Origin: a virus
Reading direction: 5' to 3' (one strand)
Virus record (IMG/VR): IMGVR_UViG_3300048590_000661
Location: 60,599-124,598 of that record
DNA: 64,000 bases
The notes beneath the pieces were generated by a model, which ran no database searches, was not told the DNA's origin, and saw only the letters and a program-made list of their open reading frames with translations. Both the position numbers and the translations under genes were made by a program. Each line of letters opens with the position of its first letter. Within the stretch, counting starts at the first letter, position 1. Below are positions 4,141-35,556 of the stretch, piece after piece.

Positions 4141-7093
4141 ATAATTTAAACCTTTCCTTGAATTTCATGTAGACCTTATTAAACTCATCTTCTGTATAAG
4201 GTAAGCGATATACGCTTTCAGCTAACCCAAATGTGCGATTATTTCTAATCATATATTTTACACCCACGAATGTACCTGCTGGAATAGGTTCACTATTTTC
4301 ATTTACATATGTCCAGAAGTTTCCCATTGGATGTAAATTGTAACTTAAATAAGGATGCCCATTTTTAGTCTTCTTGGTTTTATGACTTTTTACGAACCCT
4401 ATTGCACTATACTGCTTATCAATGCTACCTTCAATTTTGTCTACAATAAATTTATTTGGAATGACAAACTGCATAGCATCAAATTGTAATTCCTCAAACC
4501 CGCCATCTGGAATTTCTTCAACCTTGAATACTTTTGTAATATCTTGTATATCAGGTAAGCCACCAATTTGATATAACCGTCTTAATGTTGACTTATTTAC
4601 TTTACGACCATCTAGTCGTTTAAAATCTTCTAGCGTAGCAAACATCCTATCTTCTAGCATTTCCCTAGTTTCAATAATATGCACTACCCCTTTATCAGAT
4701 AGTCGGTAAATAGTCTGTAGTGGCAAATAAATCTTTTTATCCTTTAGCTCATAATTATCAGTACTAACATTAATATGTGGTAATTCTATTGGAATATTAT
4801 CTTGCACAGCATAATAAAGGATTTTTTGGGCATCTAAATTGCCGTTATGTTTGTCTACCTGTAATAATGCCGTGTAATATTCTGTTGGATAATGATGTAA
4901 ATACCACGCATCTTTGATTGCGTGAAATGCGTAGGCGGCTGCGTGACTGCGGTTAAAACTATATCGAGTATGTGTAAGTAATTCTTTCCATACTTCATCT
5001 AATAGGTGTTTATTCCAAGAATTAACAATACCTAAGTTCATGTATTCAACTTCTACAGCATCCTTTTCTTTGATCCAATCAGGGTCCGTTAATTTCTTTG
5101 CAGACTTTGGTGATAGAATACGTCTAGCCAAATCAGCACCTAATAAACCTGTACCAGTAATTAAGGCATAGATTGACATCACCTGTTCCTGGTAGATAAT
5201 AACGCCATATGTGTCTTTCAGAATAGCGTCAATTTCAGGATGAATAGTACGCTGTCCATTTTCTTTTAATTCGGCGTAAATTTGGGCGGTGCCTGCGTCT
5301 AACGCCCCTGGTCTATATAGGCTAATGGCTGCTACAATATCATTATAATGGGTAGGTTTAATAGCCTTAGTAAGTGAACGAATACCATCACTAGCGTCTA
5401 CTTGGAAAAAACCTAACATCTTACCTTTCTGAAATGTTTCTTGAAACATTTCTAGCGGATAATCTTCAGGATTTTTAGGTGGCATTACACCAGTCAAATT
5501 ATACATCATTCGTTGACGATCAAGCTCACGAATACCTAGGATATCAATCTTTACTACCCCAATTTTACTAAGCTCTTTATCATTTCCTTCAGTAAGACTA
5601 ATAATGCCATTTTCTAGCGGTAATTTAATTGTGGTATTTGTAGAGCCTACCGCACCCGCATGTTGTCCACGTTGGCGAATTTGTCCAATACAAACATTAT
5701 AGAATGTTTCGGCTTCTGGATATTCTTTAGCCAATACTTGAAATGGTTCGCAATCTTCTGTATTATCATATTCACAAATAAGTCGTTCTAGCTTACTAAT
5801 ATCTTTAAATCCAGGAACAGAATCAATATCAAATACTCGAAAGATGTCATGGATTAAAGATTTATGTGAATAGCGAGAATATGTAGATACACCTACCATA
5901 CCCCAACGCTTATTAAGGTACTCTAATACTTTATCACGTTGTAAAGTCTCGATATCTAAATCCACATCAGGGTAATCAGAACGACTAATATTTAAGAACC
6001 GTTCAAATAGAAGACCATATTGAATTGGATCGATGTCTGCGATTCCTAATAGGTAAATTAGATAACTACCACCACCACTACCACGTAAACTAACAAAGAT
6101 GTTTTCACGTTGGCAGAATAACGCTAAATCATAAATGATATATAAGTAATCTAGGAATTTTTTAGATTCAAATACACCATATTCTAATTCAAACCTGTCA
6201 ATACGCTCTTTACTATTACCATCATTACGAAGTTTATTTAGCAAGTAATCACGCATATTACTATATTCTTCATCTGTAATATGCGGTAATTGTGGCTCAT
6301 TTGCTAAGTCAATCTTCTCTACGCTATCAGCAATAGTATTTGTTAATGTTAATGCGTCATCAATAAGTGATTCATATTCATTACCCATGTAATTCATGGC
6401 AAAGGTTTTCATTTCTTCGCCAGTCTTTACATATAGTTCACTACTTGAATAATCAAACCCTTTACGTGCTACTGTTAATTTAGGGTGTAGTGGTGCATAT
6501 TCACCTTTTGCAAAATGACAGTCGTTAGTAATAACAGGTTTAATAGCTAAATCATTACAGACTTGTAAAACGCGGTCTACATAGAGACTTTTATCGTCCA
6601 TAGTAAACATTAGCTCACCGAATACGCTATTACGTCCATATGTATTAACAAGAAAATCTACATATTCATACCCTACATTATAATCTGACATAAATAAAGC
6701 ACTAGCTGGGCAACCTGTCAAAGTAATTAAATCAGCACTATATTCAACCATCATATCAGGCGTAATACATGGCTTCCCCCTATTCATGTTGCCTTGACTA
6801 GCGTTAGATAACTCAATCAAGTTATTAAGCCCATCTTTGGTTTTGGCAAGGATTGTAATATGGTTAGTTTTATCTTCCTTATAACGAAGATAGAACTCGC
6901 AACCAAAGATGGGCTTAATGCCATGCTTTTTACATTGTAGCCAGTGTTGGACTAAATTACCTAACGTGCCATGATCAGTAATCGCTAACGCCTTCTGCCC
7001 AATATTGGCTACATGTGTAATTAGGTCTTCAATGTTGCCCATACCATCAGGAGAAAATTCAGAATGACAATGTAAATGCACAAAGTCTAACAT
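4130..7093 (-). CDS. dnaE: DNA polymerase III alpha subunit (family C)
   Basis: PHP motifs FVHLHCHSEFS and AITDHG; RGSGGGS; PDVDLD; KIDILG; YQEQVM; YSFNRSHA. Confidence 0.97.
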   Translation of the reverse strand: MLDFVHLHCHSEFSPDGMGNIEDLITHVANIGQKALAITDHGTLGNLVQHWLQCKKHGIKPIFGCEFYLRYKEDKTNHITILAKTKDGLNNLIELSNASQGNMNRGKPCITPDMMVEYSADLITLTGCPASALFMSDYNVGYEYVDFLVNTYGRNSVFGELMFTMDDKSLYVDRVLQVCNDLAIKPVITNDCHFAKGEYAPLHPKLTVARKGFDYSSSELYVKTGEEMKTFAMNYMGNEYESLIDDALTLTNTIADSVEKIDLANEPQLPHITDEEYSNMRDYLLNKLRNDGNSKERIDRFELEYGVFESKKFLDYLYIIYDLALFCQRENIFVSLRGSGGGSYLIYLLGIADIDPIQYGLLFERFLNISRSDYPDVDLDIETLQRDKVLEYLNKRWGMVGVSTYSRYSHKSLIHDIFRVFDIDSVPGFKDISKLERLICEYDNTEDCEPFQVLAKEYPEAETFYNVCIGQIRQRGQHAGAVGSTNTTIKLPLENGIISLTEGNDKELSKIGVVKIDILGIRELDRQRMMYNLTGVMPPKNPEDYPLEMFQETFQKGKMLGFFQVDASDGIRSLTKAIKPTHYNDIVAAISLYRPGALDAGTAQIYAELKENGQRTIHPEIDAILKDTYGVIIYQEQVMSIYALITGTGLLGADLARRILSPKSAKKLTDPDWIKEKDAVEVEYMNLGIVNSWNKHLLDEVWKELLTHTRYSFNRSHAAAYAFHAIKDAWYLHHYPTEYYTALLQVDKHNGNLDAQKILYYAVQDNIPIELPHINVSTDNYELKDKKIYLPLQTIYRLSDKGVVHIIETREMLEDRMFATLEDFKRLDGRKVNKSTLRRLYQIGGLPDIQDITKVFKVEEIPDGGFEELQFDAMQFVIPNKFIVDKIEGSIDKQYSAIGFVKSHKTKKTKNGHPYLSYNLHPMGNFWTYVNENSEPIPAGTFVGVKYMIRNNRTFGLAESVYRLPYTEDEFNKVYMKFKERFKLYGQ

Positions 7094-26537: not shown

Positions 26538-27323
26538 TTATGATCTGTATACAATTGGTAATTTGTACGCCATCTTAATCGGCGTAATTCCATCTAACTT
26601 AGAAGCTAAATATTCTACAAAACACTTAGGGCAAAATACGCTATCTTCTTCATCGATAATAATTTGATTCTTGTAATCTACTCGCATAGTAGCGGTAATA
26701 TATTCATTTTTATCAGCGTCATGTAAAGCCCCACATGATTCACACTTGACTGCTTGAATTGTTTTCATTTTATTCTACCTCATAATATGGGTTATATAAT
26801 TCATCTTCCAATTCATATTCACCATTACAAATGTCACAACAGTTTTCACACACATCTTCATTTTTGCTATTTGTATGAATATCTTCTAACTCTTTCCAAT
26901 TAGGTAATCTTAGTTGTTTGCTGCATTCGTAGCAGTAGATACTTCCATCAATTTTTGGCATAATTACAAACTTTCTAACTTAGATTCTGTATTGAACAGA
27001 ATATTATTTACAGACTCACCATGAACTAAAAACCAGAACCGCCTATTATAATTAGCTAATCTATTTACATAAAGGTTATATAAATTATGCTGCCGATTAT
27101 CGAGTATTGTAAGGGTTAGCGTTTCATTGCTACTTTTTTCTATATATTTTAATATTTGCTTTTGTGTGGGTAGATTAAACTCTTTAGTTTTAGTAGTTAA
27201 AATAACATGGTTTAAATAAATATTGTCAGTTGCTATTCCTTTATGAATTAAAATAAACCCGTTGTAATTTGTTACATACTTACTGTCTAAAGTATTAATT
27301 AATTCATAGCTAATTTGGTTCAT
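26538..27323 (-). CDS. Three small proteins, two with CxxC zinc fingers (26538-26768, 26770-26961, 26964-27323)
   Basis: ORF track. Confidence 0.55.
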
Positions 27324-27343
27324 ATTAATGTTTTCTTATTCAG

Positions 27344-27832
27344 TGAGCTAGAAGAGAGTCGAACTCTTACGCCAAGTGTCGGTAAAACTATGGCAATTAG
27401 GACATAATAATTGTAAATTTTCAATCACATTATTCGTTCTATCACCGTCAATGTGATGTAATTCTAACTTAATTGGATAATCCAACCAAGTTGTAAGCTT
27501 ACATTCTTCGCATTGATTGCCACGCTCGTTAATTAGATGTTTACGAAAATTATACGCTCTGGTATAAGTAGACCAATCTTTTAATTGCCTGCCCTTACTC
27601 CATAATTGTCTAGTCCAATGATCTGTATTTACATTTAATAATTGTAATTTACGATTCATATTAGCATAATTACCACCAACAGGTTTTAGTCCTACGCCCT
27701 TGAGTAACCCTGCCATTGACTTAACATTCTTTGCAATTTCTATTATATCTTCATCTGTATAATTAACAATCCGCTTTGGCATCTAAAGTAAATTTTACTC
27801 CTTAATCACGTCTACCATTCCACCACTAGCTC
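27344..27832 (-). ncRNA. Split tRNA-Leu-like structure enclosing an HNH gene
   Basis: 5' half GAGCTAG-TG-GTGGAATGGTAGAC. 3' half has variable arm CCGA-CAC-TTGG, then CGT, T arm AAGAG-TTCGACT-CTCTT and CTAGCTC-A. The 7-bp acceptor stem is perfect; no anticodon arm is recognisable. Confidence 0.8.
27348..27782 (-). CDS. HNH endonuclease (separate family) embedded in the tRNA-like structure
   Basis: CEEC...LELHHIDGDRTNNVIENLQLLCPNCHS; the last codons are the T arm and acceptor strand. Confidence 0.92.
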   Translation of the reverse strand: MPKRIVNYTDEDIIEIAKNVKSMAGLLKGVGLKPVGGNYANMNRKLQLLNVNTDHWTRQLWSKGRQLKDWSTYTRAYNFRKHLINERGNQCEECKLTTWLDYPIKLELHHIDGDRTNNVIENLQLLCPNCHSFTDTWRKSSTLF

Positions 27833-27862
27833 AACTTAGCTATTTACTCGCCTATAGCCACT

Positions 27863-27891
27863 ATTTTACCACAGGTTGAAAAGTTTGTCAA
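27863..27891 (-). promoter_or_regulatory. Sigma70-type promoter for the tRNA-like/HNH unit
   Basis: TTGACA-17 bp-(TGG)TAAAAT, about 30 nt upstream of the tRNA-like 5' end. Confidence 0.8.
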
Positions 27892-28466
27892 GGGGCAACT
27901 TTATGGTCTGGATAATAGGTATAATAAGCAATTAATAGTTCATTTCTGTATTTATATTCGTAACCTAACCAGCTTTCAAGATCAAATAGTGTATTAGTTT
28001 TATTATTTGGATATATTTTATGAAAATCATCAACATGACAGTGTTTACATAAAGTAATGAGATTGCTTTCTATACAACTTAAGTCTTTATAATTTTGCAT
28101 ATCATAAATATGATGGCAATGTAATTCAGTGTTTTTAGCACCACAATTTTGGCATGTGTTACTATCTCTTTTGCGAATTCTAGACCTCATTTTTTTAATT
28201 ATTTTTTTTCTGTCTTTTTCATTTTTTATTGCAATCCCACCTTTCCAAGAATTAGAGCTGTTACCAGAAGCCTTTTCCTTTCGATAACACCCACACGATC
28301 TTGTACTTCCCCTGGAAAGACTATTACCAACTATTATTTTTTCATTGCCACAATCGCAAATACAATTATATTCCCATTGTTGGTGTTTATTCACAGAATG
28401 TTTACTAATAACAGTTATCCTTCCAAATTTTTGCCCTGTCAAATCTTTACAGCTTGAATAAGTCAT
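27888..28466 (-). CDS. Zinc-module HNH endonuclease, family copy 3 (GQKFGR module only)
   Basis: DLTGQKFGRITVI...SCGC, RKRDSNTCQNC, HCHHIYD, NLITLCKHCH, shared tail. Confidence 0.9.
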   Translation of the reverse strand: MTYSSCKDLTGQKFGRITVISKHSVNKHQQWEYNCICDCGNEKIIVGNSLSRGSTRSCGCYRKEKASGNSSNSWKGGIAIKNEKDRKKIIKKMRSRIRKRDSNTCQNCGAKNTELHCHHIYDMQNYKDLSCIESNLITLCKHCHVDDFHKIYPNNKTNTLFDLESWLGYEYKYRNELLIAYYTYYPDHKVAP

Positions 28467-28487
28467 AATACCCCAATATAGTACTCA

Positions 28488-28652
28488 TGAGACACTAAAT
28501 TACAAGTTCAGCGCTTATGTTTTACGCCTGAATTTTTATTATTCTGGTAGTTGTAATTTAGTGTCTCATCTGTCTTATTTTTGATTTTATAGGTGTAAAT
28601 CAACAAGACAGATAGCTATTTTTATCTGTCTTGCATCTGTCTTATCTGTCTT
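28488..28652. repeat. Long hairpin followed by iteron-like ATCTGTCTT repeats
   Basis: ATGAGACACTAAATTACAA/TTGTAATTTAGTGTCTCAT inverted repeat; ATCTGTCTT at 28568, 28624, 28635 and 28644, inverted copy at 28605. Confidence 0.8.
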
Positions 28653-30117
28653 GTAAATTACTTAAACATCTTGCTTGTTTGCCATTAATATAAGACTTCG
28701 TATTAATGCACCCCTTTTGAACAAAATATTGTGTAAACTCTCTTTTATATCGTGGTTGTTCACAATTTTCTAAACACCAATCTTCATACTCTTCATAAAG
28801 TTTACTAAAGAGAACTAAGTCGTTTCTATCTTTAGTAATTGTGTAATTGTACTCAGTAAGGAAATGCCCAATAGTATCTTGTTTGGCTACCATTTCATTA
28901 AGGGCATCAACTAATACTTGTGGGATATCCGGCAGTCTACCTAAGCTAAAATATTCGATAGCACCTTCAACAAACCAATGTAAAATACCTTCAATTTCTG
29001 AAATTAGTTTATCTTCACGATCAAAGTCAATTACACTATAACCTTTAAATACTGGAATAATAATAAACCGATTAAAAAATGCAGGGTCTAGTACATCACC
29101 AATAATCTCAAAGTTTGAAGCAATTACTAACTTAAATTTAGGCTTAATTAGTATTGGTTGCTTATTCTTTTTAGCAGCAGTAATCTTTTCTCTACCGCTA
29201 ATATCTTTAATTAATGCCGCATTATATGTAGCATTTCTATCTGGCTCACTAACCGCCACTACTCGCTTAAATCTACTTTCAGCTAAATCAAACCCTTGAT
29301 CATTGTTTTTGCTTCTGTCTCGCGAAATAGAATTAAAGGGCAATTTAAAAAACAACTCATCAAATAATTTATCTAGGATATTAATAAATAGTGATTTACC
29401 AGAATCTTTTTCGCCAGTTAAAAATAGTGATTTCTTTTCCCTATTCCCACCAATTAATAGATACCCTAATAATACTTTAATGAAGTTTTTTACTTCTGGA
29501 ACATCATAGTGTTTAATTAATTCAGATAGTTGTTTTTCCCATAATGAATAGTCATAAGCTTTATTTTGTTCATATGGAATATCAATCATGTAATTAATCA
29601 TATAACTAGAAGAGTGTGGTAATAATTCACCAGTCTTTAGATTAATAATTCCACTAGTAGTATTAAATAATGTGTCTAATTCGTTAGCCTCAAATACTTC
29701 TTCTTTAATATTTATTCTAGTTTCCTTCAAAAAGAATATAGTAATATTATTAATCCTATTAGTGGTTATTTCACAATTAGCTAATAGACTATTTAACTTG
29801 CTAATTTTATCTTTTAATTCTCGTTTATTATTATCATCTAAATTTTGAGAATAAAGAATGCTATTAAGTTTACTAAGTTCTGAAATTACTAATTTTGCTC
29901 GTAATTTTAATGTTTCAATAACACATTGTTGCAACTTATCTTTAGCTTGATATGGTGTCCAATATTTTTCATAAACAAGTAAAGTACTAGTTAAATCAAT
30001 CTCTTTAAATAAATACCCATAAATTTCATATAGACATTGGTAATGCCCAAAATCATTTTCACTACTGTACAATAATGTGTCACGTTGCTTTTCACTTAGA
30101 CCAACTTCGTTATTCAT
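28642..30117 (-). CDS. D5/P4-family SF3 helicase (no obvious primase domain)
   Basis: LFNTTSGIINLKTGELLPH (D5_N), GEKDSGKS Walker A, VAVSEP, IKDISGREKITA, ASNF. Confidence 0.88.
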   Translation of the reverse strand: MNNEVGLSEKQRDTLLYSSENDFGHYQCLYEIYGYLFKEIDLTSTLLVYEKYWTPYQAKDKLQQCVIETLKLRAKLVISELSKLNSILYSQNLDDNNKRELKDKISKLNSLLANCEITTNRINNITIFFLKETRINIKEEVFEANELDTLFNTTSGIINLKTGELLPHSSSYMINYMIDIPYEQNKAYDYSLWEKQLSELIKHYDVPEVKNFIKVLLGYLLIGGNREKKSLFLTGEKDSGKSLFINILDKLFDELFFKLPFNSISRDRSKNNDQGFDLAESRFKRVVAVSEPDRNATYNAALIKDISGREKITAAKKNKQPILIKPKFKLVIASNFEIIGDVLDPAFFNRFIIIPVFKGYSVIDFDREDKLISEIEGILHWFVEGAIEYFSLGRLPDIPQVLVDALNEMVAKQDTIGHFLTEYNYTITKDRNDLVLFSKLYEEYEDWCLENCEQPRYKREFTQYFVQKGCINTKSYINGKQARCLSNLQDR

Positions 30118-35452: not shown

Positions 35453-35525
35453 GCGGGGATAAGTTAATTAGTAAAACTGCCATTCTTATACAGTGGAATT
35501 ACCCGTGCAAGTCGGGTTCCCCGTA
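35453..35525 (+). tRNA. tRNA-Ile (anticodon TAT)
   Basis: Acceptor GCGGGGA/TCCCCGT-A, D arm AGTT/AACT, anticodon arm CCATT-CTTATAC-AGTGG, T arm ACCCG-TGCAAGT-CGGGT; CCA not encoded. Confidence 0.88.
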
Positions 35526-35556
35526 CTACTCAAAAAAATAAAAGGAATAAATAACT

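Follow-up and report, generated by a model that had tools for sequence, protein, structure and literature searches.

How does a complete protein-coding gene come to lie between the two ends of a transfer RNA (tRNA) gene, and is the product a functional RNA or the trace of an insertion? The question is raised by a locus in the right-hand 64 kb (64,000 nucleotides, positions 60,599-124,598, hereafter the window) of the 124,598-bp virus record IMGVR_UViG_3300048590_000661, which possesses direct terminal repeats. On the minus strand of the window, a 144-amino acid (aa) HNH endonuclease open reading frame (ORF) is enclosed by a 5′ and a 3′ piece of tRNA-Leu type. A preliminary description had likened this layout to that of transfer-messenger RNA (tmRNA) and had left two explanations side by side: a homing endonuclease which had invaded a tRNA gene and taken over its 3′ half as coding sequence, or a functional, processed tRNA-mRNA hybrid. 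The analysis reported here speaks for the first. It is highly probable that the ORF is a free-standing HNH homing endonuclease gene, from a family specialized on tRNA-Leu, sitting inside its own target, and that the two tRNA halves are a young and non-functional scar.

Anatomy of the Interrupted tRNA-Leu Gene

The coordinates of all features are given in Table 1. The promoter showed 11 of 12 consensus matches and a TG extension, and ranked first among the 14 promoter-like sites of the region 26900-28600. It is probably the former promoter of the tRNA, now driving the HNH gene. A leader of 28 nt separates it from the tRNA 5′ piece. The D loop of this piece is of the Leu type, T8, A14, G18 and G19 are intact, and the D stem contains two G-T pairs. 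The piece was aligned with the truncated fragments of five related loci (L027, L085, L047, L006 and L056, the L numbers designating loci) and with the consensus of a tRNA-Leu profile; its tRNA register is lost somewhere between positions 27806 and 27802. The distance from G26 of the D arm to the ATG is only 24 nt, and a small GTAA/TTAC hairpin lies between the Shine-Dalgarno sequence AAGGAG and the ATG. The whole region between the D arm and the T arm corresponds to the HNH ORF, and the anticodon arm is absent.

At the other end nothing follows the stop codon. The last five codons of the ORF and its TAG stop (S-S-T-L-F-stop) are themselves T-arm and acceptor sequence, and S-S-T-L-F replaces the basic, R/K-rich tail of the related proteins. 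The T stem AAGAG/CTCTT pairs at 5/5 positions, the loop TTCGACT fits the usual consensus, and G53, T54, T55, C56, A58 and C61 are intact. The acceptor strands GAGCTAG and CTAGCTC form 7/7 Watson-Crick pairs over a span of 488 nt, next to a discriminator A73. The 24 nt upstream of the ORF and the lack of any spacer downstream of it leave no room for a ribozyme. The preliminary description was thus correct on the promoter, the 5′ half with its Leu-type D arm, the AAGGAG and the 144-aa ORF in place of an anticodon arm, the perfect T arm, the acceptor stem and A73. Its reading of the final codons as tRNA held for S-S-T-L-F-stop; the part that it had taken for a long variable arm belongs to the tail of the protein, as detailed below.

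The Two Halves as tRNA Sequence

A composite scan was run for a T arm with 5/5 pairs, a 7/7 heptamer partner at most 1 kb upstream and a Leu-like D arm after this partner. Exactly one site was found in the 124,598-bp genome and none in 60 genomes simulated with a first-order Markov model, which contained on average 5.35 T-arm-like sites and 7.1 heptamer partners each. The 3′ piece was also the best match of the genome to a profile built from 78 distinct phage tRNA-Leu genes (9.4 bits, E = 0.1, profile positions 45-75). The two halves flanking the HNH ORF are therefore real tRNA sequence. The second-best profile match was located outside the window, at genome positions 5064-5095 on the minus strand (8.5 bits, E = 0.19, profile positions 12-44), and may be another tRNA fragment or a chance match.

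No larger RNA element was detected around them. A search of positions 27100-28100 with Rfam gave no match at E ≤ 10 for group I, group II, tmRNA or tRNA, in agreement with the earlier impression that an intron core was missing. As positive controls, the Intron_gpI model scored 41.7-73.5 bits in ORF-less relatives and 25 bits in the ORF-bearing L032. ARAGORN with default settings, with or without the intron option (introns to 3000 nt), called no tRNA at the split locus; in the controls L032, L020, L018 and L053, the same default run did call a tRNA-Leu(taa), its intron measuring 688, 233, 204 and 184 nt, respectively. A "tRNA-Stop(tta)" that appeared at relaxed ARAGORN thresholds was not accepted because its anticodon stem was mismatched and its intron placed at position 28-29.

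The locus thus possesses the acceptor stem, T arm, D arm and A73 of a tRNA-Leu, and not the full cloverleaf with anticodon and long variable arm of a functional one. A P3-P9 core flanking the ORF, as in a group I intron, is absent from the window. A tRNA-like domain with a tag frame was found in the window neither by ARAGORN, which also searches for tmRNA, nor by Rfam, and the analogy with tmRNA found no support.

The HNH Protein

The 144-aa protein scored above the Pfam cut-offs for PF13392 (HNH_3, 27.4 bits against 24.8) and PF01844 (HNH, 24.0 bits against 21.4). Three helices make up its N-terminal domain (residues ~10-49), and the HNH domain is C-terminal. Residues C91, C94, C127, C130, H110, N122 and H131 are present and are invariant in 40 aligned relatives; we take H110, N122 and H131 to be catalytic and the four cysteines to be zinc-binding. 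The predicted structure had a mean predicted local distance difference test (pLDDT) score of 81.5, with values of 86-95 for the beta-beta-alpha core over residues 81-130. In a fold search of the PDB all matches were weak (E ≥ 0.027) and concerned mainly HNH nucleases (McrA, Cap5 and ScoMcrA among them); the N-terminal domain had no match in this search, and phmmer found none for the protein among PDB sequences. Judged from the conserved HNH and zinc residues and from the confident modeling of both domains, this is probably an active enzyme.

The alignment also accounts for two RNA structures proposed earlier. The supposed long variable arm is made of the codons of T134, W137 and R138 (a T-x-x-W-R tail), which are at least 90% conserved in the 40 relatives; these use other nucleotides for the same residues, and the pairing is not kept. 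The supposed helix closing the insert is built from codons of C-P-N-C-H, a motif with C127, N129, C130 and H131 as invariant residues, and coding explains it.

A Family Tied to tRNA-Leu

Relatives of the HNH gene were gathered from viral, metagenome and genome contigs, giving 95 loci and 84 distinct proteins including that of the window, 74 of which are close relatives with 45-64% identity. A tRNA-Leu was called by ARAGORN at no more than 150 nt from the ORF in 49 of these 74, and a further 21 showed a tRNA-Leu profile match of at least 13 bits, some of these being exon halves of intron-bearing genes. Neither was seen in four loci. Two of them (L028 and L092) end at a contig edge, and L015 possesses a group I intron-bearing tRNA-Leu 11 nt from the ORF stop (12.6 bits). 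The fourth, L038, has no tRNA-Leu. Overall, tRNA-Leu made up 63 of the 99 tRNAs located within 150 nt of the HNH gene versus 18 of the 113 located farther away.

All orientations were observed. The HNH gene may lie directly before a whole tRNA-Leu, its stop often being inside the first bases of the tRNA (L009, L011, L012 and L026, the last being the nearest relative of the window protein), directly after it (L016, L019), or in convergent or divergent arrangement (L021, L013). An ORF at 45-64% identity thus recurs beside or inside tRNA-Leu in many unrelated contigs. By its sequence context the family is distributed as expected of a mobile gene: it occurs sporadically, in genomes that otherwise differ, at one conserved target. 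This supports the first of the two early explanations, in which a homing endonuclease entered a tRNA gene and the 3′ half of that gene became coding sequence; the family lies in or beside tRNA-Leu in nearly all the relatives examined. In a FastTree tree of 75 proteins (midpoint root, read for topology only), the window protein paired with that of L026, near L100 and the group of intron-encoded proteins. Among isolated phages in the collection searched, no full-length relative above 39% identity was found.

Two observations concern the surroundings of these genes. Next to the HNH relatives of L038 (258-331), which is the one complete locus devoid of tRNA-Leu beside the HNH gene, and of L025 (1421-1494), there are tRNAs with a CTA anticodon (amber-reading, labelled "Pyl" by ARAGORN). 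A motif resembling the tRNA-Leu D loop also recurred some 25-90 nt before the start of the HNH gene, frequently as two copies in inverted orientation (for instance L009:1440-1485, L010:1440-1480, L053:650-700 and L012:1430-1470). It was seen in sense orientation in 20/48 loci and in antisense in 21/48, at a density of ~12 per kb versus 1.05 per kb elsewhere in the loci, overlapping matches being counted repeatedly and the loci being related. The motif may serve as an operator mimicking the target, as a stretch of homology allowing recombination with tRNA-Leu genes, or as a hairpin in the RNA. That it represents decayed tRNA 5′ halves was considered and dropped for the loci having no acceptor strand, where it is a recurrent upstream element, often an inverted repeat.

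Group I Introns in the tRNA-Leu Genes of Relatives

In three distinct relatives (L032, L033 and L037) the HNH ORF resides in a group I intron inserted at position 34/35 of a tRNA-Leu(UAA). The first T of the TAA anticodon (position 34) is the last nucleotide of the 5′ exon, and position 35 is the first of the 3′ exon. The ribozyme core flanks the ORF, which occupies the loop of a hairpin whose 10-bp stem is perfectly paired. In L088, a partial copy, a 3′ exon piece follows the ORF at the same distance. Group I introns devoid of an ORF were found in tRNA-Leu genes adjoining the HNH gene, with Intron_gpI scores of 73.5 bits (L053), 60.2 bits (L018), 48.5 bits (L060) and 41.7 bits (L015). When introns with and without the ORF were aligned with MAFFT, only the 3′ part of the alignment was used; the 5′ part had been misplaced and was read by eye.

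These tRNA-Leu(UAA) introns, with or without the HNH ORF, are found on phage-like contigs. A 2014 review placed all the phage introns then known in protein-coding genes (PMC3984707). A partial literature search turned up neither a description of phage tRNA-Leu introns carrying an HNH gene nor one of a phage tRNA split by such a gene. Halves of tRNA around homologs, which the preliminary description had suggested looking for, do exist, but they are either true exons of tRNA-Leu genes with a group I intron or scars of insertion. In L010 (1929-2051), a tRNA-Leu(UAA)-like gene (Rfam tRNA, 44.6 bits) contains an anticodon-loop insert of ~35-50 nt which can form a hairpin and is too short for a group I intron.

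Other Split tRNA-Leu Genes

Both strands of the 84 representatives were scanned for an acceptor 5′ strand with D arm and a T arm with acceptor 3′ strand, pairing at 6/7 positions or more and spanning an ORF end. Among the 24 rows obtained, three were intron-bearing genes and four were split genes without a ribozyme, namely the window, L047, L020 and L056; we read the other 17 as pairings of one whole tRNA with another or as matches arising by chance within ORFs. In L047, a tRNA-Leu(UAA) is interrupted exactly at 33/34 by a whole second tRNA-Leu(UAA) and the HNH ORF, whose TAA stop is the interrupted anticodon itself. Its acceptor stem pairs 7/7, including one G-T, and its T stem has one T-T mismatch. 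In L020 the break is exactly at 34/35, and the insert is composed of a small ORF, an intron-bearing tRNA-Leu and the HNH gene; here too the acceptor stem pairs 7/7, one pair being G-T, and a single mismatch is found in the T stem. In L056 the 5′ piece ends after the D loop (~position 24) and the 3′ piece starts from the T arm. These break points are those of the window, and the insert is an antisense HNH gene with a whole tRNA-Leu. The acceptor stem pairs 6/7.

The four split genes fell in different clades of the tree. Truncated tRNA-Leu 5′ fragments retaining the acceptor strand and ending at positions 22-34 were observed beside the HNH gene or its cassette in L027, L085, L047, L006 and L056 as well as in the window. 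One mismatch in the T or acceptor stem per locus, as seen in L047, L020 and L056, is what neutral decay would give, and the lack of any mismatch in the window fits a younger scar. The precise inserts at 33/34 and at 34/35, the latter being the intron site, fit an enzyme cutting at the intron insertion site. Such cutting is the behavior described for intron-encoded endonucleases and for "collaborating" free-standing ones (PMC3984707).

Table 1. Positions of the features at the split locus, of its neighbors in the window, and of intron-bearing tRNA-Leu genes in related loci.
Feature	Position	Strand	Remarks
Sigma-70-type promoter	27891-27863	-	TTGACA (27891-27886), 17-nt spacer, TG-extended -10 TAAAAT (27868-27863)
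tRNA-Leu-type 5′ fragment	27832-27807	-	Acceptor 5′ strand GAGCTAG (27832-27826), T8, G9, D arm, G26
Shine-Dalgarno AAGGAG	27803-27798	-	Read directly; ATG 15 nt downstream
HNH endonuclease ORF	27782-27348	-	Intact, 144 aa; Pfam HNH_3 and HNH cut-offs passed
tRNA 3′ fragment	27368-27344	-	T arm (27368-27352), acceptor 3′ strand CTAGCTC (27351-27345), discriminator A73 (27344)
Second HNH ORF	27888-28466	-	192 aa; Pfam HNH, 22.4 bits
D5-type primase gene	28642-30117
tRNA-Ile(tat)	35453-35526	+	Intact
Intron-bearing tRNA-Leu, L032	1310-2080
Intron-bearing tRNA-Leu, L018	1920-2205	-
Intron-bearing tRNA-Leu, L053	1167-1436
Intron-bearing tRNA-Leu, L020	1115-1435
Intron-bearing tRNA-Leu, L033, L037, L015, L060

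Neighboring Genes and Other RNA Genes

The second HNH ORF is different from the first and lies directly upstream, its TGA stop overlapping the -35 element of the promoter. Two endonuclease genes are thus placed side by side, adjoining the D5-type primase gene. The tRNA-Ile(tat) was the only intact tRNA called by ARAGORN in the window and in the whole 124.6-kb genome, which implies a phage having no working tRNA-Leu of its own.

Other RNA genes were seen near the relatives. Within a tRNA cluster of L016, which belongs to a virus record of 127,895 bp having terminal repeats, positions 585-1029 matched the bacterial class A RNase P RNA with 58.2 bits (E = 2.8e-15), short of the gathering score of 100; this may be an RNase P RNA carried by the phage. 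Signs of tmRNA were seen in the phage tRNA clusters near the relatives as well: ARAGORN called a tmRNA with a tag peptide in L004 (1058-1434, minus strand), and Rfam tmRNA matches were present in L021 (680-747) and L044 (3276-3387).

Alternative Explanations

Chance resemblance in AT-rich sequence could be invoked in view of the low nhmmer score of the 3′ piece taken alone. It is refuted by the composite scan, with its single site in the genome and none in the simulations, and by the presence of all the universal tRNA nucleotides of both halves, and its probability is negligible. A more substantial alternative is that the window carries a decayed mobile intron. The HNH gene would first have occupied an anticodon-loop group I intron, as in L032, and deletions would then have removed the two ribozyme halves together with the anticodon and variable arms. 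Intron-encoded relatives do exist, and they are near the clade of the window in the tree, as far as topology goes. This history would require two separate deletions, sparing exactly the ORF and its ribosome binding site, and no trace of a core was left in the short space available (no Rfam match at E ≤ 10). Moreover, the breaks in the window (after ~26 and before 49) differ from the intron site, and an intron origin leaves unexplained L056, which shares these break points and yet encloses an antisense HNH gene and a whole tRNA-Leu. We consider a decayed intron unlikely.

The functional tRNA-mRNA hybrid considered from the outset would be a message with a tRNA-like handle, made of the acceptor/T-arm helix and the D arm. 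RNase P, RNase Z or the CCA-adding enzyme would process this handle, or leucyl-tRNA synthetase would charge it, and the HNH mRNA would be stabilized or regulated, or would act as an RNA cofactor. The undamaged state of both halves and the strong promoter directly upstream are in its favor, and the acceptor helix was present in both the minimum-energy and the centroid folds of a 490-nt transcript cut at the predicted ends. Cutting the RNA at these ends favors a terminal helix by construction, however, and the T arm was not formed in the minimum-energy fold; the z-score was only -1.69. The handle would lack an anticodon arm, and coding accounts for the supposed variable arm and closing helix. 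If a tRNA-mRNA device were conserved, its layout would be expected to persist; here the contents differ in every split case: extra genes lie between the halves in L047 and L020, the HNH gene is antisense in L056, and all three have a stem mismatch. In 70 of the 74 close relatives the tRNA-Leu sequence is found beside the HNH gene and not around it. The hybrid is thus unsupported, and we regard it as very improbable. A weaker idea than the handle is that the D-arm DNA upstream of the window gene may act as a target-mimic operator for the nuclease. I-TevI represses its own gene through an operator resembling its homing site.

A Model for the Insertion

We propose that the enzyme of this family would recognize the DNA of tRNA-Leu genes in the region from the D arm to the anticodon loop and would nick or cut it there. 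Repair of the break would copy the endonuclease gene into the target or next to it. In the phage studied here, an imprecise repair event would have placed the ORF inside the tRNA gene, with the loss of approximately positions 27-48, comprising the anticodon and variable arms. The right-hand junction lies in an AAG which is at once the codon of the conserved K139 (W-R-K) and the start of the T stem, and may correspond to a microhomology. The former tRNA promoter and the Shine-Dalgarno sequence would now express the nuclease. Translation would enter the T arm and stop at the TAG that spans the junction of the T stem and the acceptor. With the target destroyed, the phage genome could no longer be cut at this site by its own enzyme.

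Several points weigh against this model. It is from the genomic context alone that cleavage specificity and mobility are read. The flawless state of both halves fits a recent insertion, and it also fits selection on the RNA. No allele with an intact tRNA-Leu and no HNH gene was available for comparison at this locus, as no relative of the phage was found. The D5-type primase and a 119-aa neighbor yielded no confirmed relative of the phage among viral contigs, and exact 21-nt and 23-nt strings of the two halves had no match. Searches of GenBank phages by blastn with 801 bp and with 7.9 kb returned only a 68-nt match in the HNH gene. Against phage proteins the primase showed at most 26% identity among the 12 matches listed, all 918 being under 60%, and nothing was found for it in the records carrying L100, L016 and L003. 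The identification of L047, L020 and L056 as split genes is our own reading of the sequence; when L047 and L020 were run through ARAGORN with introns allowed, their split genes were not called. Finally, the loci are kin to one another and their counts are not those of independent events; the firm count for the association with tRNA-Leu is 49/74, as the 21 profile-only matches may include T arms of other tRNAs.

Comparison with Known Systems

The functional precedent, another phage homing endonuclease gene situated among tRNA genes, is that of SegB, in the tRNA cluster of T4. SegB is described as a free-standing enzyme recognizing a conserved motif of tRNA genes, and driving the inheritance of itself and of the neighboring tRNA genes (PMC2330249). 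SegB is of the GIY-YIG type, whereas the window enzyme is of the HNH type. The SegB target is a T-loop motif shared by many tRNA genes and its gene sits between tRNAs, whereas the window family is tied to tRNA-Leu and the window gene is inside its target. The break points in this family point to the D-arm/anticodon region, unlike the T-loop motif of SegB.

The nearest named relative in sequence is hegA (F-TflIV) of T5/BF23, the HNH domain being 49.2% identical over 61 residues (76-136). The hegA gene also belongs to a tRNA region, directly after the tRNA-Ser and tRNA-Ile genes of T5. It differs in encoding 227 aa with other domains, according to InterPro notes, among which the N-terminal domain of the window protein has no match; it is not beside a tRNA-Leu, and it splits no tRNA. 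Mobile group I introns offer a further comparison, with I-Ssp6803I, an endonuclease of such an intron in tRNA-fMet, and with an intron endonuclease reportedly specific for the tRNA anticodon region, ascribed to Bonocora and Shub in 2001. Unlike these introns, the window has no ribozyme, and therefore nothing to splice the tRNA back together. The layout in relatives of the window gene corresponds to what PMC3984707 terms collaborative homing, as with F-CphI and the psbA intron.

In tmRNA, as here, an ORF is enclosed in a transcript whose two ends together make a tRNA-like acceptor and T arm. The window differs in that a full 144-aa gene with its own start and ribosome binding site is enclosed and in that the acceptor is of the Leu type (A73). 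No pseudoknots of the tmRNA kind were seen when the window was inspected by eye.

Biological Significance

The observation from which this study started was largely correct, the insertion-scar explanation being the right one and the hybrid unsupported. What had the appearance of a new class of RNA is a homing endonuclease gene placed in its own target without the protection of an intron. A split tRNA is tolerable here because the phage tRNA is dispensable. For annotation, an insertion scar should be the first interpretation of tRNA halves that surround a phage HNH ORF. Were the hybrid nevertheless true, the nuclease mRNA would have tRNA-type ends, maybe with a CCA tail, and would represent a new way for a selfish gene to stabilize or time its expression. 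Within a single protein family, the loci form a natural series, from intron-encoded genes to free-standing genes beside ORF-less introns, free-standing genes beside intron-less tRNA genes, and insertions that split the gene. This series bears on the assembly and the disassembly of mobile introns.

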